A stretch of 51,313 nt of DNA from Actinomycetes bacterium (GTDB lineage: Bacteria; Actinomycetota; Acidimicrobiia; Acidimicrobiales; Palsa-688), in contig JAJZJY010000001.1 of assembly GCA_021809885.1 (NCBI GenBank), positions 1 to 51,313 on the forward strand, written 5' to 3'. Numbering within the stretch: the first letter of the stretch is position 1; the number at the start of each line of letters is the position of its first letter. Shown here piece after piece: positions 11,720 to 44,658 of the stretch. Both the position numbers and the translations under genes were made by a program. The notes under the pieces are model-generated. The model saw only the letters and a list, made by a program, of their open reading frames with translations. It did not search any database and was not told where the DNA came from.

Positions 11720-12093
11720 CGTGCCGCCTCTAGGGACAGAGGGGCGGCGACAGGTGCCGAGAGGTCGCGTACGACGACCTGGGCGGCGAGACCGTTGTCG
11801 CGGTTGACCACCACGGGGCCGAGGAGGTTGGCGGTTACCGACGTGGCTGAGACCGTGAGGATCAGCCACACCACCACGGCGGAGGAATCACCGACCCCGA
11901 GGGTCTCGAGGGTGTCGTCGTCGATGACCATCGGGGCGATATCGGGGAAGAACGAGGCTGGTTCGGTGAGCATGACGAAGCTCGCGTCGGTCGCACTGAG
12001 GCGAACCAGGGGCGCCGGCCCCATGTGCTCGACATGAAACGAGCGTCGTCCGGGAAAGCCGGGAAGTCCGACGGGGAACTCGATCGCGTGCAC
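11707..12093 (-). CDS. fliW: Flagellar assembly factor FliW
   Basis: 128 aa. FPVGLPGFPGRRSF and ANLLGPVVVN motifs typical of FliW, directly upstream of csrA. GTG 12093 is the first possible start because an in-frame stop lies just upstream. Confidence 0.85.
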   Translation of the reverse strand: MHAIEFPVGLPGFPGRRSFHVEHMGPAPLVRLSATDASFVMLTEPASFFPDIAPMVIDDDTLETLGVGDSSAVVVWLILTVSATSVTANLLGPVVVNRDNGLAAQVVVRDLSAPVAAPLSLEAARCSS

Positions 12094-12096
12094 CTC

Positions 12097-12330
12097 TTAC
12101 CTATCGGCAGACCGACGGGAGTCGTCGGTACGATCGGGAGATGAATCGTCTTGGGAGGTGTAGGAGCGCCACAGACGAGCGAGGACCGAGGTCCCGCCAG
12201 AGACGATGACCAAGGCGACCAGGTAGCGGGTCAGGAGCCCGTATACCGAGAGGTTGCCGGAGGAGAAGACGACCAGGGCCGGCACGCAGATCACCACAGC
12301 AAGGGCTGCTAGCGTCGATGGGCGGGGCAT
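12097..12330 (-). CDS. Small two-TM membrane protein, unknown function
   Basis: 77 aa. Two hydrophobic helices and an acidic/Ser-rich tail. ATG start 9 nt after the flhA stop. Its last codons contain the GCCGATAG box of fliW. Confidence 0.5.
   Translation of the reverse strand: MPRPSTLAALAVVICVPALVVFSSGNLSVYGLLTRYLVALVIVSGGTSVLARLWRSYTSQDDSSPDRTDDSRRSADR
12101..12108 (-). promoter_or_regulatory. GCCGATAG box 7 nt upstream of the fliW GTG
   Basis: GCCGATAG-GTAAGAG-GTG(12093). Embedded in the last codons of the 77-aa ORF. Confidence 0.45.
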
Positions 12331-12339
12331 GACGTGTGC

Positions 12340-14382
12340 TCAGCCCCCGATAGGGACGGCGACCTCGAGGGTTCCTACGTGGTCGATGGTCCCTGAACGC
12401 GGGAGCTCAGCGATCGAGATGATGTTGAGCGTCGGGACTCTTATCGCCAGGAGCCGACGAAGCGCCGGGCGCAGCCGCCCGGAGCAGACCAGCACTACCC
12501 GCCGCCCGGTGTTCTCGACGTCCCTTGTCATGGATTCGGCAGTCTCGATCAGGCGCCGCAGGGTGTCGGGGTCGCCTCCGAGCACGCTCCCGTCCTCGCC
12601 TCGAACTATCGCCTCGCACAGCACCGCCTCGCTGGGTGGTGACAAGGTGATCGCGGCGAGCCGCCCGTCGCGCTGCCAAAGCGAGCAGATCGCCGGGCCG
12701 AGAGCGGTCCTGGCGGCCTCGAGAAGCCCTTCTGGGTCTTTGGACACCCGGGCCCGGTTGGCGAGAGCCTCGAGTACCCGCACGAAGTCCCGGATCGGGA
12801 CGCGCTCGGCCAGCAGGCCTCGACAGGCTCCGAGGACCTCCCCGGTGCTCACCTGGACCGCAGCCAGCTCTTCGAGGACCGCTGGGCTGTCCTGGCGAGC
12901 GACGTCCATCAGCTGGCGGACCTGTTGGAGCGAGAGCAGATCGGGGGCATGCGAGCGGATCACCTCGCCGAGATGGGTCACCAGCAGGGAGGTCCGATCC
13001 AGCACGGTGGCGCCCGCCATGACCGCCCTGGCCCGCGAGGCCGGCGCCACGATCACAGCCTCGAGTCCGAAGACGGGGTCCGTCGTCCTCTCGCCCTCGA
13101 TCTGGTCCAGACCATCTCCGATGGCGAGCATCGCCCCGAGCGGTGCCCCTCCTTCGGCGACCCCGACACCGTGCACCGAGATCTTGTAGCGGCCGGTCTC
13201 AAGCATCACGTCGTCCTTGATTGCGACGAGGGGGACGACAAAGCCGAGCTCTGTGGCGACGAAGCGGCGAAGATTGCGAACCTTGATCGGAAGCTCGCCA
13301 CCTTGCGCCGGGTCGAGGAGTGGAACGTAGTCTCTAGCGACGCTCAGCTCCAACGCCTCGACTCTCAGCTCGGCCGCCATCGCCGCGGGAGTCAGCTCCA
13401 CGGGGCCCGCGTCGGGGGTCTCCGACGCCACCACCGGGGCGTGGTCGTTGCCCAGGCGCCGACCGGCGATCACCGCAGCCAGCCCGATCGTCACGAAGGG
13501 GATCGTGGGCATGCCGGGGAAGATCCCGAGGAGCACCAGTACGCCGCCGGCGACCGTTACCGCTCGCGAGTGGCCTCTCACCTGGGTTACGAGGTCGTGG
13601 CCGAAGTCGTTGTCGCGGTCGCCCGCCCTGGTGACGACGATCCCGGTGGAGACCGACATCAAGAGCGCCGGGATCTGCGACGCGAGGCCGTCTCCGACAG
13701 ACAGCAGGCTGTAGGTCTTCACCGCCTGGCCGAGCGGGAGGTGACGTTCGACGACGCCTACGATCAGACCGCCGATCAGGTTGACCGCGACGATCACCAC
13801 GGCAGCGATGGCGTCGCCTTTCACGAAGCGGCTCGCCCCGTCCATCGCCCCGTAGAAGTCAGCCTCGGACATGATCTCGTTGCGCCGGCGACGGGCCTCG
13901 GCGGTGTCTATCAGCCCTGCGTTCAAGTCGGCGTCGATCGCCATCTGCTTGCCGGGCATGGCGTCGAGGGTGAAGCGGGCGGCGACCTCGGCGACCCTGC
14001 CGGCTCCGTTGGTGACGACGACGAACTGGATGATGATGATGATGAAGAACACGACGAGGCCGACGACGAGCGAGCCGCCGACCACGAAGTTCCCGAAGGA
14101 GGCGATTACAACCCCGGCGTAGCCGTGCAACAGCACCAGGCGGGTGACGCTGACGTTGAGCGCCAGGCGGAACAAGGTTGCGACGAGCAGCAAGGTGGGG
14201 AACGCCGAGAACTCGAGGGGTCTCTTGACCTGCAAGGCGATCGCCACGACGACCAGCGCGGCGGCCATGTTCGCGACTATCAGAAAGCTGATGAGAGTCG
14301 TCGGCAGCGGGATGATGAACAGGGCGATCGTGACGATCACTCCGAGCGGTACTCCGATCAGCCCGAGGCGATCCTTGTGCAT
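12340..14382 (-). CDS. flhA: Flagellar export apparatus protein FlhA
   Basis: 680 aa. N-terminal 8-TM domain with FPTLLLVATLFRLALNVSVTRLVL and the FHIPEP-type loop GAMDGASRFVKGDAIA, plus a large cytoplasmic domain. SD GGAGG is upstream of the ATG. Confidence 0.95.
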   Translation of the reverse strand: MHKDRLGLIGVPLGVIVTIALFIIPLPTTLISFLIVANMAAALVVVAIALQVKRPLEFSAFPTLLLVATLFRLALNVSVTRLVLLHGYAGVVIASFGNFVVGGSLVVGLVVFFIIIIIQFVVVTNGAGRVAEVAARFTLDAMPGKQMAIDADLNAGLIDTAEARRRRNEIMSEADFYGAMDGASRFVKGDAIAAVVIVAVNLIGGLIVGVVERHLPLGQAVKTYSLLSVGDGLASQIPALLMSVSTGIVVTRAGDRDNDFGHDLVTQVRGHSRAVTVAGGVLVLLGIFPGMPTIPFVTIGLAAVIAGRRLGNDHAPVVASETPDAGPVELTPAAMAAELRVEALELSVARDYVPLLDPAQGGELPIKVRNLRRFVATELGFVVPLVAIKDDVMLETGRYKISVHGVGVAEGGAPLGAMLAIGDGLDQIEGERTTDPVFGLEAVIVAPASRARAVMAGATVLDRTSLLVTHLGEVIRSHAPDLLSLQQVRQLMDVARQDSPAVLEELAAVQVSTGEVLGACRGLLAERVPIRDFVRVLEALANRARVSKDPEGLLEAARTALGPAICSLWQRDGRLAAITLSPPSEAVLCEAIVRGEDGSVLGGDPDTLRRLIETAESMTRDVENTGRRVVLVCSGRLRPALRRLLAIRVPTLNIISIAELPRSGTIDHVGTLEVAVPIGG

Positions 14383-14405
14383 GAGCAGTCGATCCTCCTG
14401 CCCAT

Positions 14406-14413
14406 CTATCGGC
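14406..14413 (-). promoter_or_regulatory. GCCGATAG box upstream of flhA (23-nt leader with GGAGG SD)
   Basis: GCCGATAG-ATGGGCAGGAGGATCGACTGCTC-ATG(14382). Confidence 0.45.
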
Positions 14414-14449
14414 AGGGCGTGGCGTCCGGCGCGCCCCGGCGGTCTCGGC

Positions 14450-14719
14450 TCAGGCCCAGTCGTGCATGATCGAGGCGCGCGGGAGGGCGGCTATGCGCTC
14501 GCGCACCTCCAGCGCCCGGCGGTTGATCGTCGCTTCGAGCTCTCGGCTGCGGGCCCACGCCGACGCAGCCTGCTCGGCCATGTCAGCGGGCAGCTCCCCC
14601 AGAGCGGGCGGCGGCTGCGGAGGCGGGCCGGGTGCGAAGGCTGACGCCGAGTCGAAGTAGTCCGACAGGGCCGCGAGATAGCTCACCCAGGCGGCTCTGT
14701 CAGAGACGGTGCCTCTCAC
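14450..14719 (-). CDS. Hypothetical 89-aa protein translationally coupled to flgL
   Basis: GTG 14719 forms a GTGA overlap with the flgL stop (14716). Pro-rich centre and a predicted helical C-terminus (ELEATINRRALEVRERIAAL). I recognise no family. Confidence 0.45.
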   Translation of the reverse strand: MRGTVSDRAAWVSYLAALSDYFDSASAFAPGPPPQPPPALGELPADMAEQAASAWARSRELEATINRRALEVRERIAALPRASIMHDWA

Positions 14720-15612
14720 GGCAGGTACTGGAGGATGCTCGAGGTGACCGAGGAGACCTGGGATGTCGCCCACAGGGCCGCTTGGAGGCTGGACTGGCGT
14801 AGCTGCAAGGCGGTGGCAACCTTCGCCAGGTTGGTGGACGAAAGGCTCGACACCTGATCCCCGAGCGTCTGGGAGGCGAGGCCGGCCGCGGTGCCCGCCG
14901 CGCTCATCTGGTCGTACTGAGCCCCGAGCGTCGCAGCCGAGCTCTCTGCTGTGGCGTAGGAGGCGTTGATCGCGGCGAGATCGGAGTTGAGCACAGCGGA
15001 GGTGTTGCCGGCGCTCAAGTCGGCAACGGTCTGGGAGAGAACTCCGAACAGCCCGGTGGCCCCCGACCCGAACACCGCGGTACCGGGGACCCCGACTGGA
15101 AGCTGGGTTCCTGACGCGACGGTGCGGGTCGCGACCACCCCGTTGCCGGCGTAGTTGCCGGCCGCGTCATAGGCCTGCCTGGCGCCGGAGGTCCCCCCGA
15201 AGATGGCGTAGCCCTCGTAGGTGGTGTTCGCCTCGGTGAGCAGGCTCGTCGCGATCGACTTCACCTTGGTGGCGAGAGCTGCCATGCCAACCGGCGAGGT
15301 CTGGGCGGTCGACACCGACAGCACCGCTTGTTGGACCTGGCTGATCTGGTCGATGACGCTGTTCATCGTCGAGGTGAACAGCCCGAGACGGCTGACCCCG
15401 TCGGCAGCGGAGGTCACATACCCGTTCGTCACCGCTTGGGCGGCCTGGGCGCTGAGGGTCTGGACCGCTCCCGCCGGGTTGTCCGACGGGGCGAGGATCG
15501 ACGTCCCGGTCGCCAGCTCCTGGCTGAGATGCTGGATGCTCGCCTGCGTCGAATCGACGGTGGAGAGGAGCTCGGAGGCGAACGATGTGGTGGTGGCAGG
15601 TAGGACGCTCAC
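14716..15612 (-). CDS. flgL: Hook-filament junction protein FlgL (HAP3)
   Basis: 298 aa, flagellin-like. N-terminal SELLSTVDSTQASIQHLSQELATG and a C-terminal helical region (LQLRQSSLQAALWATSQV). GTG 15612 gives a GTGA overlap with the flgK stop. Confidence 0.85.
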   Translation of the reverse strand: MSVLPATTTSFASELLSTVDSTQASIQHLSQELATGTSILAPSDNPAGAVQTLSAQAAQAVTNGYVTSAADGVSRLGLFTSTMNSVIDQISQVQQAVLSVSTAQTSPVGMAALATKVKSIATSLLTEANTTYEGYAIFGGTSGARQAYDAAGNYAGNGVVATRTVASGTQLPVGVPGTAVFGSGATGLFGVLSQTVADLSAGNTSAVLNSDLAAINASYATAESSAATLGAQYDQMSAAGTAAGLASQTLGDQVSSLSSTNLAKVATALQLRQSSLQAALWATSQVSSVTSSILQYLP

Positions 15613-16979: not shown

Positions 16980-17401
16980 ACCAAGAGCCCCCCGTCGGGG
17001 TCGGATCGGACCAAGCGGAGACATCCGTCGGCTCCGTACTCTCGGTGTCCGTCCAGAGCGCCGAGAGCGTCCTGGGCGGCCAGAAGTCTCGTTGCGATCA
17101 GGGTGGAGGCCTCCGACGCTCTGCGCGACGAGAGGGTCAGCATCTCCTTGAACTCGATCCAAGCCCCGGCCACTGAGGGGTCGGTCGTGGTCCCAGCGGA
17201 GCTGAGCTCCTCCAAGCCGTCGTTGTCGAAGGTCCTGGCCGCGTCGACGACGGCTGCGGTCAGCTCCTCTTGGGCGAGGTCGATGAGGCGCCGCGGACGG
17301 TCTGCGCTCACCAGCAGCTCGAGCTCCTCGACTCGCAGCAGGATGCGCTCAGCGGCGTGCACTCCACGGCTGAGCACTTCGGTGACATCTGTTCGACCCA
17401 T
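16976..17401 (-). CDS. FlgN-like export chaperone (putative)
   Basis: 141 aa, helical and acidic, immediately upstream of and coupled to flgK. Called by position and composition only. ATG 17401 was chosen because it lies 7 nt after a GCCGATAG box. Confidence 0.5.
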   Translation of the reverse strand: MGRTDVTEVLSRGVHAAERILLRVEELELLVSADRPRRLIDLAQEELTAAVVDAARTFDNDGLEELSSAGTTTDPSVAGAWIEFKEMLTLSSRRASEASTLIATRLLAAQDALGALDGHREYGADGCLRLVRSDPDGGLLV

Positions 17402-17408
17402 GCCACAG

Positions 17409-17416
17409 CTATCGGC
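17409..17416 (-). promoter_or_regulatory. GCCGATAG box 7 nt upstream of the flgN-like ATG
   Basis: GCCGATAG-CTGTGGC-ATG(17401). Confidence 0.5.
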
Positions 17417-17453
17417 ACCCAGCAGCGCCGTTCCGCGGCTCGGCACGACATTT

Positions 17454-17483
17454 CTCACCCAGGTATGGCACCGATGCCGATAG
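17454..17483 (+). promoter_or_regulatory. Sigma-28-type promoter, CTCA-N18-GCCGATAG, 7 nt upstream of the GT2-GT4-MT GTG
   Basis: CTCA (17454-17457), 18 nt, GCCGATAG (17476-17483), TTGGTAG, GTG (17491). Confidence 0.55.
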
Positions 17484-17490
17484 TTGGTAG

Positions 17491-20034
17491 GTGGATCTCG
17501 CTTGCTTCGACGTGACCTTGGTGTTGGTGACCCGGGACCGTGCGGACCTCACGCTCGCCTTCGTGCAGGCGCTCGCCAAGGTATCACCTCCTTCGGACTT
17601 CGAGGTCGTGATCGTCGACAACGGATCGTCCGACGCCACCTCTGCCCTGCTCGCCATCCTCGGAGGCGACGTGAAGACGATACGCAACGACCGCGAGGCC
17701 GGCTTCGCTGCCGCCTGCAACCAAGGTGCGGCTGTGGCAGCAGGTCGACATCTCGTCTTCGCCGAGGCTCGCTGCGAGCCCCTCGCCGGGTGGATGCGAG
17801 CCATGGTAGGTCTGCTCGACGCTCACGCCCAGATCGGCGCCGTCGCCCCGAGGCTGATCGCGCCCGACACCACGATGCACTCGGGCGGTCTCGCGCTGGC
17901 CTCGCGAGGCGAGACCCTTGAAGCGGTCCCCCGCCTGAGAGGGATCCCAGCCAGCGACTCCCGTTCGGCCACGCCGAGAGAGGTCGACGCTGCCTCCTCG
18001 ACGTGCATGGCGGTTCGCCGAGAGGCCTTCGAGTCGCTCGGAGGCTTCGACGAGGGCTACCTTCACGGCGGCGGAGACGTCGAGTTGTGCCTGGCGATCG
18101 CCGACGCCGGGTGGAAGATCGTCTACGAGCCGGCCGCAATGCTGATGGTCAAAGGGACTTCCCTTCCGGGGTGCGGCGACCTCGTGCTCTGCGCTGCCGA
18201 CCGCGACCGGCTGAACCGGCGCTGGGGGACGCGGGTGGCGCCATCTGTGGACCTGGGAGGCGACGGGGCTCCACGAGAGGTGCGACGACACCTGAGGGAG
18301 GCGCGCTCCGGGCATCGTGGCGCGAACGTGGCGGGCTTCTTCGACGCCGAGCTCGGTATCGGCCAGTCTGCCCGTCTGGTGGTGGACGCTCTCGAGGCGT
18401 CGTCGGTCGATGTCGTCTCGTCCTCGTACTACCGACATCTGAACCGGGCCGCTCAGCGCTTCGAGCGCCGCGGCGACGCGAGCTCCCCGTGGGATCTCAA
18501 CATCATCTGCGTGAACGGAGACATGCTCGGACTGTTCGCTCTCGAGGCTGGGGAAAGGTTCTTTCGGGATCGCTACAGCGTGGCGATGTGGCACTGGGAA
18601 CTCGAGGAGCTCCCGGAGAGCCATGTCAGAGCGATCGACCTCGTCGACGAGATATGGGTCGGATCGGAGTTCACCAGAGCGGCGGTGAGCGCCTGCACCG
18701 ACAAGACGGTGAGAACCGTGCCGCTACCGGTCGCCCGGCGACGAGGTGGGTCGGTCGAGGCCCACAGCCGCGAGGAGATGGGAATCCCGGAGGGTTTCGT
18801 CTTCGGCTTCATGTACGACGCCAACTCGATCGCGGCGCGTAAGAACCCCGACGGTCTGATCTCCGCCTTCTGTGACGCCTTCGAAGACGGCGAGGGGCCG
18901 GCACTCGTCGTCAAGACGATCAACGCAGGGGCGAGGCCAGACGTTGCCGCAGCGCTTGCACGCCAGGCGTCTCGGCGCAGCGACATCACCGTGGTGGACC
19001 GCTACCTCGACCGCTCCCAGGTGGGGGCCTGGACCGGCTTGGTCGACTGCTACGTCTCGTTGCACCGCTCCGAGGGGTTCGGCCTCACCATCGCCGAGGC
19101 GATGTCGTGGGGAACGGCGGTGATAGCGACCGCGTACTCGGGCAACCTCGACTACATGACCGACGACAACTCCTACCTGGTGCCTTGGGTGCCGGCCGAG
19201 GTGCCAGCCGATGCCGCCCCCTACCCACGGGGCGCCAGATGGGCCGAGCCGGACATGGCATGCGCCTCCGCCATGCTGCGCAGCGTGTGGGAGGACCCCG
19301 ACGGCGCCAGGGCACGCGGGGCGAGGGGAAAGGCCGACATCGCACGAACCCATGGGATCGAGGCGGCGAAAGCGGTCGTCGAAGAGCGCCTGGAGGCCAT
19401 CGAGGCCACGATGGCCGCCAGGCGCAAGAGGGCGCACAGCGCCAAGCCCTCCCCTTGTCCGACCCTGGTGCCACACCCCGACTTCGGCACCGGGGTGCGC
19501 TTCGGGACCGCCGACTCGGCGCTGCCAGCCGACGCTTCGGCCCCGCTGCGACTCAATCTCGGAGCTGGCGACGAGCCCCGACGCGGCTTTGTGTCGATCG
19601 ACATGCGTCGCGACGTAGCCGACGTGGTGGCTGCGCTCGAACGCCTCCCCTTCCCCGGCGCGACCGTCGCCGAGATCCTCGCCTCCGACGTGCTGGAGCA
19701 CTTCCCTGCCTCGCGCACAGCGGAGCTGCTCGCCGAGTGGAACCGGGTGGCCGTCATGGGGGCCAAGATCACCGTCAGGGTCCCCAATCTGCTCGCCCTG
19801 GCACAGCTGCTAGTGGCCCACCCCCACACACGGGTCAACGTCATTCGCAACATCTACGGCGGTCACCGCTGGGGGCCGGATGGGGCCTGGGACACGCATC
19901 ACACTGGATGGACGCCCGACATGCTCGCAGCCGAGCTCGTCGCAGCAGGCTTCGTCGTGCTCAGCGACGACGGTGACACCAACAACACCGTCGTCGCCAT
20001 GAAGGTCGCGGAGCCGAGCCGACAACGCGCCTAG
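17491..20034 (+). CDS. Tri-domain enzyme: GT2 glycosyltransferase - GT4 (group 1) glycosyltransferase - SAM-dependent methyltransferase
   Basis: 847 aa. GT2: VIVDNGSSDAT...GGDVELC. GT4: EGFGLTIAEAMSWGTAVIATAYSGNLDYM. Methyltransferase: LNLGAGDEPRRGFVSIDM...ASDVLEHF. The GTG start is 7 nt after GCCGATAG. Its stop shares the tetranucleotide CTAG with the convergent flhB stop. Confidence 0.85.
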   Translation: MDLACFDVTLVLVTRDRADLTLAFVQALAKVSPPSDFEVVIVDNGSSDATSALLAILGGDVKTIRNDREAGFAAACNQGAAVAAGRHLVFAEARCEPLAGWMRAMVGLLDAHAQIGAVAPRLIAPDTTMHSGGLALASRGETLEAVPRLRGIPASDSRSATPREVDAASSTCMAVRREAFESLGGFDEGYLHGGGDVELCLAIADAGWKIVYEPAAMLMVKGTSLPGCGDLVLCAADRDRLNRRWGTRVAPSVDLGGDGAPREVRRHLREARSGHRGANVAGFFDAELGIGQSARLVVDALEASSVDVVSSSYYRHLNRAAQRFERRGDASSPWDLNIICVNGDMLGLFALEAGERFFRDRYSVAMWHWELEELPESHVRAIDLVDEIWVGSEFTRAAVSACTDKTVRTVPLPVARRRGGSVEAHSREEMGIPEGFVFGFMYDANSIAARKNPDGLISAFCDAFEDGEGPALVVKTINAGARPDVAAALARQASRRSDITVVDRYLDRSQVGAWTGLVDCYVSLHRSEGFGLTIAEAMSWGTAVIATAYSGNLDYMTDDNSYLVPWVPAEVPADAAPYPRGARWAEPDMACASAMLRSVWEDPDGARARGARGKADIARTHGIEAAKAVVEERLEAIEATMAARRKRAHSAKPSPCPTLVPHPDFGTGVRFGTADSALPADASAPLRLNLGAGDEPRRGFVSIDMRRDVADVVAALERLPFPGATVAEILASDVLEHFPASRTAELLAEWNRVAVMGAKITVRVPNLLALAQLLVAHPHTRVNVIRNIYGGHRWGPDGAWDTHHTGWTPDMLAAELVAAGFVVLSDDGDTNNTVVAMKVAEPSRQRA

Positions 20035-21874: not shown

Positions 21875-21884
21875 CGGGCGCCCT

Positions 21885-22160: not shown

Positions 22161-22164
22161 CTCC

Positions 22165-23512: not shown

Positions 23513-24402
23513 TCCTCCGGGTCCAGATAGGCGACGACCTGGCAGGCGGCACGCTTGCCGGTGGCCACCAGGTCTGCGTTGAACAGCGGCCGGTCCTGGG
23601 CGTAGACCAGCAGCGGCGACCCAACCTGGTGGCCGAGGGATATGACCTGGTCGACGCAGAGCGACTCGGCGACAGACAGTGGGATCGCGGTCATGGCGAA
23701 GCGCAGCGACACCGTCACCGGCAGAGCCTTGACGGCCTTCTCCATGGCGGGACTTACCGCCGCCTCGTGGCGCGCTCCGCCGCCACCCGAACGCTCGACA
23801 AGCGGGCGGAGGGCGGATGTCGGGATGCACACGTCGAGACCCCAGGAGGTCTGCGCCACCTGAGCAAGGCGTACGGAGAAGCGCAGGATCACACACTGCT
23901 CGCCGCGGTCTCTCGCATGTGAGGCGGCTATGACGATCTGGGTCACCGGAGACGCCTCGACGTGTCCGAGCACCGCAGATGTCGAAGCGGCTACCTCCTG
24001 GGCGATCACCTCCAAGAGCGGGGCGATGATCTGGCGCTCCATGTCGGAGAGGGCACGGAGGGGGAGCGGGCCGACCCCACTGCCGGCCAGCTGCAAGTCG
24101 ATGGCGGTCATTGCCAGGTCGATCGGCAGATGGATGACGGCCGTCCCGCTCCCCGCTCCGCGCAGCTCGAAGCTCCCGAGCAACGACGGTCCAGCGAGGT
24201 CGGCCTCGAAGTCGCCCCAGTCGAGTTGGTCGAGTGACTCGAGGTGGACCTGGGTCCGGTTCCTCAGCAGAGCCCCTATGCGCCCCCCGCCGGAGCGGGC
24301 GAAGCTCTCGGCCATGCCCCTGATCGCCAAGACGCCGGCCCGGTCTATCTCCTCGGGATGGCGGAAGTCCCACGGGGTGACGGCGGCTTCGGTGTCGGGC
24401 AC
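23509..24402 (-). CDS. fliM: Flagellar motor switch protein FliM
   Basis: 297 aa with a FliM middle domain and a C-terminal SpoA-like segment, located upstream of fliN. GTG 24402 is 8 nt after a GCCGATAG box. Confidence 0.85.
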   Translation of the reverse strand: MPDTEAAVTPWDFRHPEEIDRAGVLAIRGMAESFARSGGGRIGALLRNRTQVHLESLDQLDWGDFEADLAGPSLLGSFELRGAGSGTAVIHLPIDLAMTAIDLQLAGSGVGPLPLRALSDMERQIIAPLLEVIAQEVAASTSAVLGHVEASPVTQIVIAASHARDRGEQCVILRFSVRLAQVAQTSWGLDVCIPTSALRPLVERSGGGGARHEAAVSPAMEKAVKALPVTVSLRFAMTAIPLSVAESLCVDQVISLGHQVGSPLLVYAQDRPLFNADLVATGKRAACQVVAYLDPEE

Positions 24403-24410
24403 TACCCTAT

Positions 24411-24418
24411 CTATCGGC
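24411..24418 (-). promoter_or_regulatory. GCCGATAG box 8 nt upstream of the fliM GTG (internal promoter candidate)
   Basis: GCCGATAG-ATAGGGTA-GTG(24402), in the 55-nt fliL-fliM gap. Confidence 0.45.
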
Positions 24419-24457
24419 GTGCCGTGTCGTCCGCAGGAGCCTTCGCCTGCCAGTGCA

Positions 24458-26423: not shown

Positions 26424-26427
26424 TTGG

Positions 26428-26658
26428 CTACTCGACTACTCGCAGAGGAGGAGAAGTGGTAGCCATGACCTTGGCCAAGGCGACTACCGCTGCCTTGGAT
26501 GCCGTCACGGCGTCGACGACTGCCCCGACGCTCTCGGTCACGGTGTAGCAGTGGCCGTCGACGGTGGTGATGGTAGTATCGGGGCGTTGCTCGATTCGCT
26601 CGACGCAGTCCTCGTTGAGCACGAACTGCTCCCCGTGCAGGCGAGTCAGGTAGATCAC
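26428..26658 (-). CDS. flbD: Flagellar protein FlbD
   Basis: 76 aa. MIYLTRLHGEQFVLNEDCVERIEQRPDTTITTVDGHCYTVTES matches the FlbD family pattern. Sits between flgE and motA, as in Firmicutes and spirochetes. Confidence 0.8.
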   Translation of the reverse strand: MIYLTRLHGEQFVLNEDCVERIEQRPDTTITTVDGHCYTVTESVGAVVDAVTASKAAVVALAKVMATTSPPLRVVE

Positions 26659-26677
26659 CGAGAAGCGCTCCTTTCCT

Positions 26678-26685
26678 GTATCGGA
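26678..26685 (-). promoter_or_regulatory. Weaker box TCCGATAC upstream of flbD (19-nt leader with AAAGGAG SD)
   Basis: TCCGATAC-AGGAAAGGAGCGCTTCTCG-GTG(26658). Two mismatches to the GCCGATAG box. Confidence 0.25.
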
Positions 26686-28502: not shown

Positions 28503-28516
28503 CGGATGGTCTCCTC

Positions 28517-35783: not shown

Positions 35784-35785
35784 CT

Positions 35786-36094: not shown

Positions 36095-36100
36095 GGTCCG

Positions 36101-36490: not shown

Positions 36491-36831
36491 TGAAAGCCAC
36501 CCCCCATGGAGCCACGCAGGATACGGAACTGGATGTTCAACGCGTTCACGACCGCTTGGGCCTGGAGGTCGTTGGACGACAGCTTCGACAGCTCCTGGGT
36601 GAGATCCACGTTGTTGCCGTTGGGCCCCGCCGGTGCGGCCGACAGTCCCGCTGCCGGCGTGACTGTCGAAGGAGCCGACGACCCGAGAGCAGCGCGCAGC
36701 GAGCTCTCGAAAGAGTAGGTCCTCGATACATATCCTGGCGTCTGGTCGTTGGCGATGTTGCCGGCGAGCACCTGGCGCTGCGCGCTGAGCGCGCTGAGCG
36801 CATAGCCGAGCACGTCGATGGTCGAGCTCAT
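36487..36831 (-). CDS. flgB: Flagellar proximal rod protein FlgB
   Basis: 114 aa. LSAQRQVLAGNIANDQTPGY N-terminal rod motif. There is no Shine-Dalgarno in the 15 nt upstream. The ATG forms an ATGA overlap with the small-ORF stop. Confidence 0.88.
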   Translation of the reverse strand: MSSTIDVLGYALSALSAQRQVLAGNIANDQTPGYVSRTYSFESSLRAALGSSAPSTVTPAAGLSAAPAGPNGNNVDLTQELSKLSSNDLQAQAVVNALNIQFRILRGSMGGGFQ

Positions 36832-36920
36832 CGGAGACGCGGACCAACGGAGACCCGGCAGTTGAGGACCGGGGGGAGGAGGGCCGCCATGTTCTCGTGA
36901 CGGTGGCGGGCGTCATGCAT
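36828..36920 (-). CDS. Leader small ORF (30 codons) coupled to flgB; part of a conserved leader element (copy A)
   Basis: Strong RBS: AGAAGGAGA, then 8 nt, then ATG at 36920. Encodes MHDARHRHENMAALLPPVLNCRVSVGPRLR. The TGA overlaps the flgB ATG (ATGA). Paralogous to 39678-39836. Confidence 0.4.
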   Translation of the reverse strand: MHDARHRHENMAALLPPVLNCRVSVGPRLR

Positions 36921-36997
36921 CGTGGTGGTCTCCTTCTGTTGTGTGGACCAGCCCCCATCCGAAGCTCGCTGGACCAGCTGATGTCTGACCAGATCCT

Positions 36998-37027
36998 CTA
37001 TCGGCAACCCAACCACCTCATGCTGAG
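36998..37027 (-). promoter_or_regulatory. Sigma-28-type promoter, CTCA-N18-GCCGATAG, for the flgB leader/operon
   Basis: Minus strand reads CTCA (37027-37024), N18, GCCGATAG (37005-36998). The -35 region overlaps the stop codon of the upstream sigma-like gene. Confidence 0.55.
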
Positions 37028-37776
37028 ATCGCCTGCGCGGGATGGTCATGGAGGTAGGAGTCGAGGACCTGCGGCAGGGTTGGCCCCAGACGGCGATGGA
37101 AGTTGGCCGGCCGGCGTACACGTTCGCCGGCTGCGACCTTTATGAGGTACTCCTTCACCTCCGGGTCGGGATGGGCCGAGATCACCCCCTCCACCTCCGT
37201 CCTCATCAGCCCCGCTATGACCTGCTCCGATGCATCACATGCTCCAGATGGCGAGGCGGTCGTCATGTGGTTCTCGGCCGAGGTGCCGTAGCTCACGATT
37301 GCACGCAGTACAGGGCTTCCACCCTGTACTACCTCGTCGAGAAGCGCGTCTCGCTGCGAGACATCGGGCTCAGCTCCGTTGCGCTGCGCGGCCTCCTCCC
37401 ACGCCGACTCATAGGCCTTCCGCAGCGTTCGGGGCCCGCGACCAAGGGGATCCACGGCTCGGCAGGCATCGATCAAGGCGTGATGGAGCTGACCGTCGAG
37501 ATAGGCGACTTGCTGAGCCGGAGGGGCATCGAGGTCAAGGCGGTCCAAGGCGACTGCCACCCGCTCGCCCAACCCCGAGACCAGGTCATCGTGAACCGAC
37601 ACCGGCAACCCAGCCGCGCGCTCCGAAGCTAGCATCTTCGCATGAGCGAAGAGAACCTTGACAAGAGCCGACCGTTTCGAAGTGTAGCTGGCTCCGGAAC
37701 CTGAGGCGGCCTCAACGGCGTCGGCGAGGACGCGCTTCGTGGATGCCGATCGCCGCCTGGGCACGAAACCTCTCAT
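37018..37776 (-). CDS. Divergent sigma-70-family-like protein (FliA/WhiG-like region 2; atypical region 4)
   Basis: 252 aa. LVKVLFAHAKMLAS...DDLVSGLGERVAVALDRLD...VAYLDGQLHHALIDACRAVDPLGRGPRTLRK follows the region 2.1-2.4 spacing pattern of the fliA product in this window. The C-terminal HTH is only weakly recognisable. Confidence 0.4.
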   Translation of the reverse strand: MRGFVPRRRSASTKRVLADAVEAASGSGASYTSKRSALVKVLFAHAKMLASERAAGLPVSVHDDLVSGLGERVAVALDRLDLDAPPAQQVAYLDGQLHHALIDACRAVDPLGRGPRTLRKAYESAWEEAAQRNGAEPDVSQRDALLDEVVQGGSPVLRAIVSYGTSAENHMTTASPSGACDASEQVIAGLMRTEVEGVISAHPDPEVKEYLIKVAAGERVRRPANFHRRLGPTLPQVLDSYLHDHPAQAISA

Positions 37777-37953
37777 GACGCCGCCGCCCGATTCGTCTCG
37801 CCGAGCACGATTGACATTGCGCGTTGACGGCGAAGCGGAACGCGTTCGACCGGCGGTGAGGCTCCTGGGGCATCATCTCCAGGGGCCGGCGCACAGCGGA
37901 GGTCAAAGGCGCCGGCGAGCAAAGGCCCGACCTCGCAGTGGGGGCGCGTTGGA

Positions 37954-39684
37954 TCAGAGGACATCGCCACTCCTATCGCCAGTGCCGGTGGCCAGCCGAC
38001 AGCCAAGGTATGATCCGAGCTCCGGTCCAGAGATGGGCCTGCAAAACAAGTACCCTTGCGCGTGAGGACAGCCGACGCGACGCAACGCAACGGCTTCGGA
38101 CTCGGCCTCGACGCCTTCGGCGATAACGTCCAAGCCGAGAGCGAGGCCGAGTGTGACCACCGTTGTCACGATGGCGGCATTGGTGGCGTCGAGGCCGACT
38201 CCGGTCACGAAAGAGCGATCGATCTTCAATGCGTTCACCGGTAGTCGCTTGAGATAGGCCAGGGACGAATAGCCGGTCCCGAAGTCGTCGAGCGCAACTC
38301 TCACGCCCAGCTCCCGGAGCGACCAGAGACGGCGGACGGCCGCGTCGGGGTCGGAGAGGAGCGCGCTTTCGGTGACCTCCAAGGTGAGCCGATGGGCTTG
38401 GAGACCCGAGGCGCTCAAGGCTCTCCCCACCAACGTCGGTAGGTGGGGATCCTCGAGCTGGAGGGCCGAAACGTTGATAGCGACAGAGAGCGGGCCTGCC
38501 ACTCCAACAGGCCAGCTCGTCGCTACATGGCAAGCCTCTCGGAGCACCCATCCCCCAAGCGCGACTATGACACCTGAGCTCTCAGCAGCTCCGATGAAAG
38601 CATCTGGGGCGGCAAGCGAGCCGGTCGGTTGAGCCCATCGGACCAGGGCTTCGGCTCCGACCGGCCGACCGGTGACAAGGTCGACAACTGGTTGATAGTG
38701 CACCACAAACTCGTTGTCGCTCAACGCTTGGAGCAGTGCTGCCGGTAGCACCACTCGGCTGAGCGCGTCGGTCCGCTCCGAGGCGCTGAAGAACCGGAGA
38801 CGGTTGCCGCCGCTGCTGGAGGCGACTCCCATAGCCAGTTCAGCGTCCTCGATGAGAAGGGCGGGCAAGACGCTCGGAGAGGTGGCGAACGCTATGCCGA
38901 TGCTCACGGTCAGGACCACCCGGTCGCCGTCGACGAGGAACGGCTCGGCGAAGCAGGCCGTAACCCGCTCCGCCAGAGCGCTGGCCGCCAGCCTTCCCGC
39001 TCGGGTCTCACACGCTACTGCCAGGCAGTCGTAGTCGACCACGCCAAGGTCGTCGCCAGCCCGTAGGTCGCTTTGCACACGCCGAGTCGCTGCGACGAAC
39101 ATCTGCGCGGCGAACCCACGCCCGCAGGCCCGGGCCACCGCGCGGTACTGGTCCAGTTTGACCACCAAGACCACCACCTGGGACCGGGAGTCGGGTGGAA
39201 GCCTGCCGACGGCCTCGGCAATACGCGCTGTGAACTCTCTACGCTGCGGGAGCTCTTCGAGGAGCCTTCGGCGGGCGTAGTGCTCTGCCTCGTAGGCGTT
39301 CTCCCTATCGAGCTCGCTGATCGTGGCCACCACCCATCCCGACGACGGGTCCTCGAGCCCGTTGCGGAAAGTGACCTCCGTCGGGCACCACCGGCCGTCG
39401 TTGTGGCGGGTTCGCAGGACCAGAGCCACCCTCGCCCCCGGCGCTGCCAAGCACCTCCTCCACGCCTCGCGCCACCGATCCAAGTCGTTGGGATGCACAA
39501 GATCTCTGGTGCGCATCTCGAGACGTTGCTCCGGCGAGTAGCCGAGGATGCGGGAGTACGAAGGGCTGACTTCCACCGCCTCGCCGAAGCGGTCGAGAAG
39601 CACTAGGCCGTCATCCGCGTCCCGAAGGAGGGCTTGCTGCCGCGTCTCTTGCTCGGAGCGGGTCGACGCCGTGTCGATCACCAT
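37954..39684 (-). CDS. PAS - degenerate GGDEF - EAL protein (predicted c-di-GMP phosphodiesterase)
   Basis: 576 aa. PAS (LVLLDRFGEAVEVSPSYSRILGY). The GGDEF position reads GVVDYDCLAV (degenerate). EAL motifs are intact: EALVRW, AINVS, LEVTES, DDFGTGYSSL, KIDRSF, AEGVE, QGY. Confidence 0.9.
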   Translation of the reverse strand: MVIDTASTRSEQETRQQALLRDADDGLVLLDRFGEAVEVSPSYSRILGYSPEQRLEMRTRDLVHPNDLDRWREAWRRCLAAPGARVALVLRTRHNDGRWCPTEVTFRNGLEDPSSGWVVATISELDRENAYEAEHYARRRLLEELPQRREFTARIAEAVGRLPPDSRSQVVVLVVKLDQYRAVARACGRGFAAQMFVAATRRVQSDLRAGDDLGVVDYDCLAVACETRAGRLAASALAERVTACFAEPFLVDGDRVVLTVSIGIAFATSPSVLPALLIEDAELAMGVASSSGGNRLRFFSASERTDALSRVVLPAALLQALSDNEFVVHYQPVVDLVTGRPVGAEALVRWAQPTGSLAAPDAFIGAAESSGVIVALGGWVLREACHVATSWPVGVAGPLSVAINVSALQLEDPHLPTLVGRALSASGLQAHRLTLEVTESALLSDPDAAVRRLWSLRELGVRVALDDFGTGYSSLAYLKRLPVNALKIDRSFVTGVGLDATNAAIVTTVVTLGLALGLDVIAEGVEAESEAVALRRVGCPHAQGYLFCRPISGPELGSYLGCRLATGTGDRSGDVL

Positions 39685-39836
39685 GTTCTCCGGGGAGGGA
39701 CGGAGGCCCGGCCGTCGAGGGCCTGGAGGAGCAGGAGGAGCGCTGCCATGTTCTCGTGACCGCAGTCGGCATCATGCGCCGTGGTGCTCTCCTTCTGCTC
39801 GTGCGGTCCAAGCGCACCAACACCCCCCCTCACCAT
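39678..39836 (-). CDS. Leaderless small ORF (52 codons) overlapping the EAL gene start; conserved leader element (copy B)
   Basis: ATG 39836 lies 7 nt after CCCGATAG. Encodes MVRGGVGALGPHEQKESTTAHDADCGHENMAALLLLLQALDGRASVPPRRTW. The TGA (39678-39680) lies just past the EAL-gene ATG (39684). About 80% nt identity to copy A by hand alignment. Confidence 0.35.
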   Translation of the reverse strand: MVRGGVGALGPHEQKESTTAHDADCGHENMAALLLLLQALDGRASVPPRRTW

Positions 39837-39843
39837 GCTCGTG

Positions 39844-39871
39844 CTATCGGGCCCCGTCCGGCTGAGGTTTA
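39844..39871 (-). promoter_or_regulatory. Sigma-28-type promoter, TAAA-N16-CCCGATAG
   Basis: Minus strand reads TAAA (39871-39868), 16 nt, CCCGATAG (39851-39844). Close to the classical TAAA-N15-GCCGATAA. Confidence 0.5.
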
Positions 39872-39959
39872 GCGTCCACTGGCGGGCACCGGTGGCCGGC
39901 AAAGCACGAAATCCCAGGTGCTGGTTTTGGTGGGCACTTCACGCATTGTGCGCTTTGTC

Positions 39960-39981
39960 CTGGTTTAGTTCTGGTTTAGTT
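39960..39981 (+). repeat. Perfect 11-bp tandem direct repeat CTGGTTTAGTT x2 (degenerate third copy CTGGTTTTGGT at 39921-39931)
   Basis: Read directly in the AT-richer divergent intergenic region between the EAL-leader promoter and fliA. It lies 43-64 bp upstream of the fliA GCCGATAG box. Confidence 0.9.
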
Positions 39982-40023
39982 CGCTCCAGACGGACGACGA
40001 GAGCACAGCAGGCGCCTCGGCCG

Positions 40024-40031
40024 GCCGATAG
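40024..40031 (+). promoter_or_regulatory. GCCGATAG box 7 nt upstream of the fliA ATG (putative autoregulated leaderless promoter)
   Basis: GCCGATAG-ACGGGTT-ATG(40039). No recognisable TAAA or CTCA at -35. Confidence 0.45.
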
Positions 40032-40038
40032 ACGGGTT

Positions 40039-40722
40039 ATGAGAACGGCTCCCCACACCGACGAGGAGGGGGCTTGGAGTGCTTATGGATCCGAACGCAG
40101 CCTCGAGAACCGCAACCGGCTCGTCGAGTTCCACGCCTCGGTGGCGAGACGTGCTGCACTACGCTGCCTCCCCTACGCGCGAAGCGTCGGGGCGGCGATG
40201 ACGGACATCGAGGACCTGGAGGGGATCGCCTTCGAGGGCCTCATCGAAGCTATCGAACGCTTCGATCCGACGCGGGGGGTGGACTTCGCCCACTATGCCA
40301 ACCTGCGCGTCGACGGACATGTCAGAGACGCTTTGCGCGCGGATGACTACTTGTCGCGGCGTTCCCGCCAGCAGGTGAAGGCCTGGATGGGAGAAGATTT
40401 CGAGGCGATGAGCGATGAGAAGAAGAGGACGGCAGCGCGCCTCGCCAGTCAGCGCCCCATCCACCTCGCCGACCTGCCAGCGGGCGACGAAGTCGAGGGG
40501 CTCACGGAAGTCGCCGGGATAGAAGACGAGATCCTCTCCCCCTCCGTCGTCACCGACGCTCTGGAGTCGCTGAACCCGGCAGAGCGGACGGTGATCGAGT
40601 TTCGCTATCTGCTCGGGATGTCGCTGTCGGCCATTGGGGTGGTCCTGTCGGTCACCGAGAGCCGAGCTTGCCAGATCCACCTGGCGGCGCTGAGCCGGCT
40701 GCGCGCAATCGGAAGGCCCTGA
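40039..40722 (+). CDS. fliA: Flagellar sigma factor FliA/WhiG (sigma-28 family)
   Basis: 227 aa. Region 2: NRLVEFHASVARR...DLEGIAFEGLIEAIERFDPTRGVDFAHYANLRVDGHVRDALR. Region 4 HTH: LNPAERTVIEFRYLLGMSLSAIGVVLSVTESRACQIHLAALSRLR. Confidence 0.85.
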   Translation: MRTAPHTDEEGAWSAYGSERSLENRNRLVEFHASVARRAALRCLPYARSVGAAMTDIEDLEGIAFEGLIEAIERFDPTRGVDFAHYANLRVDGHVRDALRADDYLSRRSRQQVKAWMGEDFEAMSDEKKRTAARLASQRPIHLADLPAGDEVEGLTEVAGIEDEILSPSVVTDALESLNPAERTVIEFRYLLGMSLSAIGVVLSVTESRACQIHLAALSRLRAIGRP

Positions 40723-40752
40723 GGCTTTGAGTGGGTCTGGCGAGGTTCTCCT

Positions 40753-41133
40753 TCAGGCCGTTGCAGGCACCGGCGAGTCCATTGCCGCCACCCGGAATGC
40801 CTCGTTGAGCTGCCCGAGGATGCCGGCGACGATGTCGAGGGTGTCGAGGTTGCCCGTCATGTTCACCTCGATCAGGCCCTCCCAGCAGAAGCGGTACAAC
40901 GCATCGAGGCGGGCCGCTCCGTCCCAGGAGTGGTCCAATGTTGTGGAGAAGGTCACGAGTATTCCCTGAGCCGAGATGAGGCACTCGTTCGCGGTTTCGT
41001 GCTGGCCGGCCCTCTTCGCCTCCGCTGCGGTCTCGAGGTCGAGCATGAGACGGTCGTAGAGCATGAGGAGCCGCTCGGCTGGCGTGGCGGTGGACACTTG
41101 CTCGATCATGATCCGACGCCGGTCGTAGCTCAC
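40753..41133 (-). CDS. fliS: Flagellin-specific chaperone FliS
   Basis: 126 aa four-helix-type protein (LLMLYDRLMLDL...AARLDALYRFCWEGLIEVN...LNEAFR). GTGA overlap with the fliD stop. Confidence 0.85.
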   Translation of the reverse strand: MSYDRRRIMIEQVSTATPAERLLMLYDRLMLDLETAAEAKRAGQHETANECLISAQGILVTFSTTLDHSWDGAARLDALYRFCWEGLIEVNMTGNLDTLDIVAGILGQLNEAFRVAAMDSPVPATA

Positions 41134-43664: not shown

Positions 43665-43690
43665 CGCGTGACCACATCCTTGCAGAGAGG

Positions 43691-43725
43691 CGAAGCCACC
43701 GCGGCGGGCGCCGCGGTGGGCTTCG
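43691..43725 (-). terminator. GC-rich hairpin after the flagellin gene (putative terminator/attenuator)
   Basis: A 14-15 bp stem with one bulge (CGAAGCC(C)ACCGCGG / CCGCGGTGGCTTCG) and a 6-nt loop, 20 nt after the flagellin TAA. The downstream tract is pyrimidine-rich but is not a classical U-run. Confidence 0.5.
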
Positions 43726-43744
43726 GACGAGTGGACTTGTGGTG

Positions 43745-44575
43745 TTAGAGGCCGAGCGCCTTCAACACGATGTTCGGTGCCTGCTGCGCTGTCGCCAGCA
43801 TGGAGGCACCGGTCTGCTCGAGGATCTGCTGGGTCGCCAGCTGTGTAGATGCCTGGGCGAAGTTGGTGTCCACGATCCGGGACTGGGCCGACTGGAGGTT
43901 CTGTTGCCCGACCGTGAGGTTGGCCACGATGTCTTGCAGCTTGTTCTGCTGTGCCCCGAGGTAGGCTTGCATGCTGTCGACGGTGTTGATCGCAGCCGAC
44001 AGCGAGGTGATAGCTGTGGTCGCGTTCGCCTGGGTGTCCACCGAGGTGGTGTTGAGCCCGAGGCCGGTGTCAGTTGCCGCGGTGGAGATGGTCACTGCCA
44101 GCTGGCTGTAGGAGCTGACGCCCGTGCCGACCTGGAAGGTCCCGGTGTACGTGCCCGAGAGGAGCACCTGGGACCCGAACTTGGTCGTGTTGGCGATCTG
44201 GGTCAGGTCCGACTGGAGAGCGCTGTACTCCTGCTGGTTCGCTGCGGCGGCAGCCGGGTCGGTCGAGCCCGAGTTGGCCGAGGAGTATGCGAGCTGCTGC
44301 ATCTGCTGGACGATACTGACCGCCTGATTGAGCGCGCCCTGAGCTGTCTGGAGCATCGAAACACCGTTCTGGGCGTTGGTGATGTCCACTCCGTAGCCGG
44401 CCGCCTGGTCTCCCAGCAGGCCTGCGGAGACGTACCCGGCGGGGTTGCTCGCAGCGGTCTGGATCGCCAAACCGGACGACATCTCACCGATAGTCGTGTT
44501 GAGGGCACTGTTGGTGGCGTTGAGGGTGTCATACGCCTGGGTCGCCGAAGCGTTGAAGTTGACTGTGATTGACAC
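43745..44575 (-). CDS. fliC: Flagellin
   Basis: 276 aa. Conserved D0/D1 termini (ITVNFNASATQAYDTLNATNSAL...; ...NFAQASTQLATQQILEQTGASMLATAQQAPNIVLKALGL). GTG 44575 with SD AAAGG 7 nt upstream. Short Thr/Ser-rich central region. Confidence 0.92.
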   Translation of the reverse strand: MSITVNFNASATQAYDTLNATNSALNTTIGEMSSGLAIQTAASNPAGYVSAGLLGDQAAGYGVDITNAQNGVSMLQTAQGALNQAVSIVQQMQQLAYSSANSGSTDPAAAAANQQEYSALQSDLTQIANTTKFGSQVLLSGTYTGTFQVGTGVSSYSQLAVTISTAATDTGLGLNTTSVDTQANATTAITSLSAAINTVDSMQAYLGAQQNKLQDIVANLTVGQQNLQSAQSRIVDTNFAQASTQLATQQILEQTGASMLATAQQAPNIVLKALGL

Positions 44576-44580
44576 GTTGG

Positions 44581-44595
44581 CACCTTTCGTCCGTG
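44581..44595 (-). promoter_or_regulatory. Putative CsrA binding region in the flagellin 5' leader
   Basis: Minus-strand RNA reads AUCACGGACGAAAGGUG. It has one ACGGA motif and a second GG motif overlapping the SD, preceded by a small hairpin CCCCAUGACGGGG (44606-44618). Analogy to the two-site hag leader of B. subtilis. Confidence 0.35.
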
Positions 44596-44628
44596 ATCGA
44601 TAACGCCCCGTCATGGGGTTCGGAGTGT

Positions 44629-44658
44629 GGATCGGCACAGACGCTCCGCGGACTTGAG
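44629..44658 (-). promoter_or_regulatory. Sigma-28-type promoter, CTCA-N18-GCCGATCC, for flagellin
   Basis: Minus strand reads CTCA (44658-44655), N18, GCCGATCC (44636-44629). Same spacing as the flgB and GT2-GT4-MT promoters. The predicted leader is ~46 nt. Confidence 0.55.

Follow-up and report, generated by a model that had tools for sequence, protein, structure and literature searches.

The 51,313-nucleotide stretch of actinobacterial DNA analysed here (the window) carries a flagellar gene cluster in which one short sequence box recurs ahead of many transcription units. We consider it likely, with a probability of roughly three in four, that these boxes are the extended -10 element (TGCCGATAG, positions -16 to -8) of promoters recognised by a sigma factor whose gene lies in the cluster itself, and that they define a single-tier regulon with a class of leaderless transcripts. 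Boxes are found ahead of the units flgB to fliL, fliM to flhB, flhA, flgN-flgK-flgL and fliW-csrA, a glycosyltransferase gene and the sigma gene fliA. A near-perfect box precedes a cyclic di-GMP (c-di-GMP) phosphodiesterase gene, and weaker ones precede the flagellin gene and flbD. In other words, early (flgB, flhA, fliM), late (flgN-flgK-flgL, fliC) and regulatory (fliA, fliW-csrA) units share one box type, and a single-tier design is therefore the simplest reading of the cluster. A flat hierarchy had been proposed in the first-pass annotation of the window, and the distribution of the boxes agrees with it. We infer from the sequence that the sigma factor reads the boxes, that the boxes fix the exact +1 position, that the resulting messages are translated without a leader and that a hierarchy is absent.

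The core octamer GCCGATAG had been reported to occur seven times, and all seven copies were recovered at their positions and on their strands. The count was compared with shuffled sequences, where the mean was 0.98 and the maximum 3, i.e. none of 100 shuffles reached seven. The excess over chance that had been claimed thus stands, while the accompanying expectation of about two copies is slightly high. Three near-copies (CCCGATAG, GCCGATCC and TCCGATAC, all on the minus strand) are also present as described. In agreement with the first-pass annotation, 7 of the 7 exact copies point at the next gene, which is a flagellar one. All seven lie within the non-coding 8% of the window according to a gene map based on codon statistics and on Pfam and NCBIfam scans. 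This map omits a small open reading frame (ORF), orf66 (12097-12297), as unconfirmed; were it real, the fliW box would overlap its last codons. A rough estimate that assumes independence gives about 1.6e-10 for all seven copies being both non-coding and co-oriented. The sample is small and comes from one window, which is what could be said for a chance or compositional clustering of the octamer in GC-rich DNA; the shuffles, the above estimate and the orthologous boxes in many lineages exclude it. A T directly precedes 5 of the 7 exact copies, which gives the nonamer TGCCGATAG.

The box is, as judged from its sequence, a sigma-28-type -10 element of the FliA/WhiG kind. It differs by a single base from the sigma-28 -10 consensus GCCGATAA, as had been noted, and the variant in question, with G at -8, is among the FliA-bound sites of Escherichia coli (flxA, yrfF). 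The logo of 25 sites consists of a T at -16 (19 of 25) followed by the octamer, within which CCGAT is invariant. A housekeeping-type -10 element (TANNNT) hidden in the box was considered and ruled out, as there is a G instead of a T at -12 and position -7 is variable. It was also considered whether the TAG inside the box simply terminates the preceding reading frame, which does not hold for fliL, orf89 and orf252. A scan for E. coli-type sigma-70 promoters between 36800 and 45000 returned nothing intergenic.

The candidate for reading these boxes is a divergent sigma factor of the sigma-28 family (FliA/WhiG-like, 227 aa) encoded at 40039-40722 on the plus strand, i.e. between fliC-fliD-fliS on one side and the flgB operon together with the c-di-GMP gene on the other. 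Pfam recognises Sigma70_r2 and Sigma70_r4 in it, and among PDB structures it is matched best by WhiG (6pfj) and FliA (9wsf/6pmi). When residues are counted by hand on the alignment with the structural match, the protein keeps the equivalents of Y76, R80, D87 and D93, the residues that read positions -11 to -13 in Pseudomonas aeruginosa. Its homologues at 45-56% identity are all short proteins of the r2+r4 type and of metagenomic origin. The second sigma-like protein mentioned in the first-pass annotation was not found; the 252-aa and 213-aa ORFs have no similarity to the sigma factor of the cluster.

A number of observations weigh against reading the boxes as promoters of one regulon served by this protein. 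The best NCBIfam match of the sigma factor is FliA_WhiG, with a score of 103.7 bits where the family cut-off is 189.6; region 3 (Sigma70_r3) is not recognised in it by the Pfam scan; and, on the same hand-counted alignment, the equivalents of the DNA-contacting residues R82, H100 and R101 are lost. As for the promoters, a fixed-position search for a -35 element in 25 aligned sites gave no conserved column upstream of -16. The sigma-28 -35 element (TAAA or T(C/A)A about 15-16 nt upstream) is lacking at most sites, and TCA or TAA at N17-18 is seen at only 6 of 30. Where a TCA/TAAA element is present, it is 1-2 bp further from the box than in the E. coli spacing. The consensus of Actinoplanes missouriensis is reportedly CTCA(N15-17)GCCGA, so that CTCA-N18 lies one base beyond it. 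Moreover, a separate box is lacking at fliD-fliS, at motA and at several further genes, and as the known genome sequence amounts to only about 65 kb, the box frequency describes the flagellar surroundings only.

The unconserved -35 region and the sub-threshold score of the sigma factor also speak for a different explanation, namely that the nonamer is no promoter element at all but the binding site of another regulator, or a signal that acts at the RNA level in longer transcripts. We regard this as very improbable. The motif is one base away from the sigma-28 -10 consensus in a variant that FliA binds in E. coli, it lacks the dyad or repeat symmetry of regulator sites, and its copies are strictly co-oriented with the downstream genes. 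Furthermore, the box is as far from the start codon as such a promoter element is from its +1, and the fliM box of Micrococcales is accompanied by CT(A/T)AC at the -35 distance.

The reading of the boxes as sigma-28 promoters can be followed site by site, and the spacing to the start codon separates two classes of genes. The leaderless geometry is seen at six starts. The GCCGATAG box at 40024-40031 (plus strand) is 7 nt ahead of the fliA ATG at 40039, an arrangement that would be autoregulatory. On the same strand, the TGCCGATAG box at 17476-17483, with a CTCA at 17454-17457, is 7 nt ahead of the GTG at 17491 of the GT2-GT4-methyltransferase (glycosyltransferase) gene; this GTG comes straight after an in-frame stop. 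The other four are on the minus strand. The TGCCGATAG box at 17409-17416 is 7 nt ahead of the ATG at 17401 that opens the flgN-flgK-flgL-orf89 unit, and the TGCCGATAG box at 12101-12108 is 7 nt ahead of the fliW GTG at 12093, the first gene of a fliW-csrA-glycosyltransferase unit. The GCCGATAG box at 24411-24418 is internal, i.e. it lies between fliL and fliM, 8 nt ahead of the fliM GTG at 24402, which is the first start codon of the frame and upstream of the conserved PWDFR motif. Finally, the near-perfect box CCCGATAG at 39844-39851, with TAAA 16 nt upstream (39868-39871), is 7 nt ahead of the ATG of a small ORF at 39836; it heads the leader, about 150 nt long, of the PAS-GGDEF-EAL gene (39684). 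These six spacings are those claimed in the first-pass annotation, and a Shine-Dalgarno sequence is absent at all six starts.

The second class keeps leaders. The TGCCGATAG box of flhA (14406-14413, minus) is separated from the ATG at 14382 by a 23-nt spacer that contains GGAGG. In the flgB operon (flgB to fliL), the TGCCGATAG box (36998-37005, minus, with CTCA at 37024-37027) is followed by a 166-nt leader before the flgB ATG at 36831. The flagellin promoter (44629-44658, minus) consists of the -35-like CTCAAGT and the imperfect box TGCCGATCC, whose octamer GCCGATCC is at 44629-44636; the interval to the fliC GTG at 44575 is 53 nt, which corresponds to a leader of about 46 nt. Hence flhA, flgB and fliC are not leaderless. 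The weak box TCCGATAC of flbD (26678-26685, minus) is 19 nt ahead of the GTG at 26658, with a Shine-Dalgarno sequence in between. At the equivalent place the two closest relatives, L178 and L008, have TGCCGATCT, and the box was not found there in L092, L094 and L179.

The significance of the 7-nt gap follows from the open complex at the P. aeruginosa fliC promoter, in which GCCGATAA occupies positions -15 to -8 (PMC12784957); a gap of 7 nt therefore sets +1 on the first base of the ATG or GTG. We compared the spacing in relatives (L007-L009, L090-L094 and L175-L179) that were reached through FlhB, FliA and FliF homologues with 45-74% identity. A GTDB scan with FlhB alone had found no relative, and a metagenome scan with FlhA was discarded for footprinting, as the universal DAMPGKQM motif drew in all phyla and the best match was only about 50% identical. 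Orthologous boxes are 7-9 nt from the start at fliM, flgN, the glycosyltransferase gene, fliW, fliA and flgD. The gap at fliM is 7 nt in L007, L008, L092 and L179 and 8 nt in L094. At flgN it is 7 nt in L008 and L009, 8 nt in L094 and L179 and 9 nt in L092; the box in question is GCCGATAT in L179. The glycosyltransferase gene has gaps of 7 (L007) and 8 nt (L009), fliW one of 8 nt to a GTG (L090), and fliA gaps of 8 nt to an ATG (L175) and of 9 nt to a GTG (L177). At flgD an extra GCCGATAG box with a gap of 8 nt occurs only in L092 (2953-2960) and L094 (2671-2678); in the window flgD lacks the box and has a normal Shine-Dalgarno sequence instead. Internal promoters have therefore been gained or lost between the lineages.

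It is conspicuous that the distance is kept and the sequence of the gap is not, i.e. the bases between box and start differ among the relatives. FliM has 6-44 residues ahead of PWDFR, yet its start codon is always 7-8 nt from the box, and the box-proximal starts all open full-length in-frame proteins. The leadered class is retained as well. In L008, L009 and L094 the flhA box is kept with a leader of 20-44 nt that includes a Shine-Dalgarno sequence; the flgB box is kept in L178 (TGCCGATAG, leader of about 55 nt) and in L179 (GCCGATAC); and flgB and fliC are leadered in every relative compared. The leaderless reading given in the first-pass annotation thus follows from the published -15 to -8 geometry and is strongly supported by a 7-9 nt spacing that persists in diverged relatives.

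A more conservative view would accept the sigma-28 promoters and hold that the messages are not truly leaderless: transcription would start a few bases off, and translation would come mainly from read-through, coupling or an AGGAG. The spacing does range from 7 to 9 nt, and fliM, flgN and fliW are downstream of co-directional genes, where read-through is possible. In addition, GCCGATAGGAG is found 5-7 nt before the start in several relatives; AGGAG overlaps the end of the box at flgN in L008, L092 and L094 and at flgD in L092, which is a further point against the leaderless reading, and it could act as a Shine-Dalgarno sequence on read-through transcripts. Nevertheless, we think this view unlikely. 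The modal gap of 7 nt is exactly that of the -15 to -8 geometry, the spacing peak is restricted to 7-8 nt, and a Shine-Dalgarno sequence is absent at the window sites and in many relatives. The glycosyltransferase gene and fliA are out of reach of read-through because they are divergently transcribed. We also note that the authors of the A. missouriensis work apply the term leaderless to an mRNA whose leader is 1 nt long.

The predicted leaderless geometry extends beyond the clade of the window. A set of 52 actinobacterial flagellar loci contains 50 GCCGATA[AG] boxes; for 27 of these, an ORF of at least 70 codons begins with ATG or GTG exactly 7-8 nt downstream, and the corresponding value for 1822 composition-matched octamer sites used as decoys is 3.2%. 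A box followed after 7 or 8 nt by GTG is found ahead of fliM in Paeniglutamicibacter, Arthrobacter, Georgenia, Lacisediminihabitans, Microbacterium, Arenivirga, Kineococcus and an Acidimicrobiales metagenome-assembled genome (MAG); the identity of FliM was confirmed by Pfam for four of the fliM genomes outside the clade of the window. The box at fliM in Micrococcales has a CT(A/T)AC element 15-16 nt upstream. The predicted internal fliL-fliM promoter, which is kept from Acidimicrobiia to Micrococcales and Kineosporiales, would be the clearest leaderless case. It is tempting to propose that a conserved hard-wiring of sigma-28 promoters to leaderless starts is an ancient feature of actinobacterial flagellar clusters and that in the Acidimicrobiales-like lineage the divergent sigma is essentially an extended -10 (TGCCGATAG) factor; a -35 element, with a spacer 1-2 bp longer than the canonical one, would be retained only where the -10 is weak, as at flagellin. 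This is a tentative proposal, and we stop somewhat short of calling it probable; if it is true, the capacity of the cell for leaderless translation partly sets the output of flagellar proteins. As a separate observation, in Arenivirga flava and in a Microbacteriaceae genome (L106 14412-14431 and L109 14091-14110) csrA is preceded by GCCGATAC, 9 nt and then ATG. CsrA was identified by Pfam in Arenivirga and by an identical N-terminal sequence in the Microbacteriaceae genome, and the arrangement suggests a near-leaderless sigma-28 transcript.

Promoter elements upstream of the box deserve a separate comment. A CTCA-N18 arrangement had been claimed for three promoters and a TAAA-N16 for one; these elements are indeed present (CTCA-N18 at the glycosyltransferase gene, flgB and fliC, TAAA-N16 at CCCGATAG), and only the one at fliC is conserved across lineages. 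The flagellin promoter reads CTCAAGT / TGCCGATCC in the window, TTCAAGT / TGCCGATTA in L177 and CTCAAGT / TGCCGATTG in L090. All three have TCA-N18-box, i.e. 15 nt between TCAAGT and the box, and in L177 and L090 both this spacing and the leader length match the window. The sequences thus point to promoter compensation: a perfect extended -10 element would need no -35, and the weakened -10 of flagellin keeps its TCAAGT.

The fliC leader itself, about 46-48 nt, is kept in the three lineages (44576-44628, minus, in the window; L177; L090). In the window, GGA motifs occur in it close to the Shine-Dalgarno sequence (cacGGAcgaaaGGtg), and the cluster includes fliW-csrA. By analogy with Bacillus subtilis, a control of flagellin translation by CsrA is likely. 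Between fliC and fliD, immediately past the end of the former, there is a GC-rich inverted repeat (CCACCGCGGCG / CGCCGCGGTGG, about 43690-43720, minus) that looks like a terminator or attenuator and would make flagellin monocistronic.

The proposed mechanism can be summarised as follows. The sigma factor (40039-40722) would activate its own gene in a self-reinforcing circuit, and as the single sigma it would drive early, late and regulatory units together with the c-di-GMP phosphodiesterase. In the leaderless class (fliM, flgN, the glycosyltransferase gene, fliW, fliA and the small ORF ahead of the phosphodiesterase gene) the polymerase would begin on the start codon and the mRNA would be translated without a Shine-Dalgarno sequence. 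In the leadered class (flhA, flgB, fliC) leaders with a Shine-Dalgarno sequence would be kept, presumably because post-transcriptional control acts there, e.g. that of CsrA-FliW on flagellin.

In E. coli, Salmonella, Pseudomonas and Bacillus, sigma-28 serves only the late (class 3) genes and is controlled by FlgM, the mRNAs are leadered and a -35 element is required. The boxes of the window share with these canonical promoters (TAAA-N15-GCCGATAA) the -10 core, the T before GCCGATA and the distance to +1. Unlike them, they are not confined to late genes, as early and regulatory ones have them too; most of them lack a -35 element, and most are at the leaderless distance. A closer parallel is A. 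missouriensis, where, according to the summary of Jang et al. 2016 and Hashiguchi et al. 2020 in PMC13083903, each of the 11 flagellar transcription units is served by a FliA-type promoter; the same source states that the loss of FliQ leaves flagellar transcription unaffected and that there is therefore no hierarchy. As far as that summary goes, the two systems have in common FliA-family promoters throughout, the apparent lack of a hook-basal-body checkpoint hierarchy, and a Gram-positive-type cluster with a lytic enzyme, fliK and flbD. They differ in that A. missouriensis belongs to Micromonosporales and has several FliA paralogues, whereas the window is Acidimicrobiales-like and has one divergent sigma.

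A second parallel comes from Denis et al. 2026 (PMC13595943), who described sigma factors of the WhiG1 clade in actinobacterial flagellar clusters, with several GCCGA sites per cluster, predicted autoregulation, predicted c-di-GMP enzyme targets and no FlgM. Among the WhiG targets predicted in the same study, c-di-GMP enzymes are the most widespread. The window resembles these systems in having its sigma gene inside the flagellar cluster and several GCCGA-type sites, and in its predicted autoregulation and c-di-GMP target; the family scans detected no FlgM in it, although this protein is easily missed. On the other hand, Denis et al. required a -35 element (xT(C/A)Ax), worked with cultured genera and did not mention a leaderless geometry; the role of the sigma was mainly a late-stage one in their analysis, whereas in the window boxes are also present at the early genes flgB, flhA and fliM. 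A flat design is thus already established in A. missouriensis and predicted for WhiG1-type sigmas, and the window fits it as a further example from a class not covered by those studies. It extends the single-sigma, non-hierarchical design from Actinoplanes to an uncultured Acidimicrobiales-like lineage and does not overturn the current understanding.

Leaderless mRNAs are common in Actinomycetota (mycobacteria, Streptomyces, Actinoplanes), and the described cases belong mostly to promoters of the housekeeping sigma (TANNNT). One example of a leaderless mRNA is that of atsA in A. missouriensis. Such messages have their start codon (ATG or GTG) no more than 1 nt from the 5' end and lack a Shine-Dalgarno sequence, as the predicted transcripts of the window would; the latter differ from the described cases in that an alternative sigma would be responsible and that the arrangement is conserved at specific flagellar genes across classes. 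A literature search, which did not include the Actinoplanes study by 5' RACE (rapid amplification of cDNA ends), found no report that links sigma-28 flagellar promoters with leaderless mRNAs. As leaderless transcripts are common in the phylum, the conserved spacing is neat rather than surprising. What it adds is that the promoter-to-start distance itself is conserved phylum-wide, and it offers a practical rule for annotating flagellar start codons and operon boundaries in actinobacteria, namely that the start is 7-8 nt after GCCGATA(G). It also divides the genes into putatively leaderless ones and leadered ones (flhA, flgB, fliC), the leaders of the latter being likely targets of post-transcriptional control such as that by CsrA-FliW.

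The cluster as a whole is of the Gram-positive flagellar type; it begins with fliC (44575), ends with csrA (11480) and is read on the minus strand except for two divergent genes, the sigma-70-family gene at 40039-40722 and the GT2-GT4-methyltransferase gene at 17491-20034. Pfam supports the identities of fliW, flhA, fliM, flgB, the sigma-70-family gene, the GT2-GT4-methyltransferase gene, flagellin, flbD and the PAS-GGDEF-EAL gene. The flgN-like ORF had no family match in the Pfam scan, and its label is due to its position ahead of flgK-flgL. The window is a contig of metagenomic origin (JGI 3300033990). The nearest named homologues are from Acidimicrobiales or Acidimicrobiia MAGs (60% identity for FliF, 49% for FlhB), and FlhB is only 33-38% identical to GTDB species representatives; by these identities the host is an uncultured Acidimicrobiales-like actinobacterium.

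No ORF of the window matched the FlgM family, a protein that is short and hard to detect. Three ORFs inside the cluster, all on the minus strand, gave no family match and no informative PDB sequence match: orf66 (66 aa, 12097-12297), orf89 (89 aa, 14450-14719) and orf252 (252 aa, 37018-37776). Since no FlgM is detectable, they are candidate regulators or anti-sigma factors for sigmas of this kind. Relatives have counterparts at the same positions: L090 one of 76 aa, L008 and L094 one of 85 aa each, and L178 one of 251 aa.

Two further features of the upstream regions deserve mention. From the box to the main start, the leaders of flgB (36831-37005, minus) and of the PAS-GGDEF-EAL gene (39684-39851, minus) are paralogous, with 79% column identity and a common 25-mer, CACGAGAACATGGCNGCNCTCCTCC. 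Each contains GAAGGAG and a small same-frame ORF whose end overlaps the main ATG; the flgB copy starts at ATG 36920 (30 aa) and the phosphodiesterase copy at the leaderless ATG 39836 (52 aa), and the peptides share ..HDA...HENMAALL... The shared leader was considered as a riboswitch, but Rfam gave no match and its folding energy is not unusual; it was also considered as a coding element, but the differences by codon position (7/9/6) give no coding signature. It is absent in the closest relative, L178. The element may represent an upstream-ORF or leader control that links the basal-body operon to c-di-GMP turnover. The other feature is a perfect tandem direct repeat, CTGGTTTAGTT in two copies at 39960-39981 (plus), which lies between the divergent boxes of the phosphodiesterase gene and fliA, 43-64 nt upstream of the latter, with a looser third copy at 39921. 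Its 11-bp period suggests a site for a response-regulator-type activator that could start the sigma circuit.

Outside the cluster, the flanks carry cytochrome c maturation, c-di-GMP and other genes. The system I ccm operon at 62-5471 (ccmB, ccmC, ccmE, ccmF, a gene for a thiol-disulfide protein and ccmH) has no sigma-28 boxes. Among the compared loci, IS605/TnpB-type elements occur in or beside flagellar or sigma loci in L009 (2411-3622) and L175 (495-2677). Finally, the locus of Sphaerisporangium cinnabarinum (L155, about 2451) is identical to that of Cellulosimicrobium funkei (L142, about 2499) over the stretch around the flgE site, and the S. cinnabarinum assembly may be contaminated.

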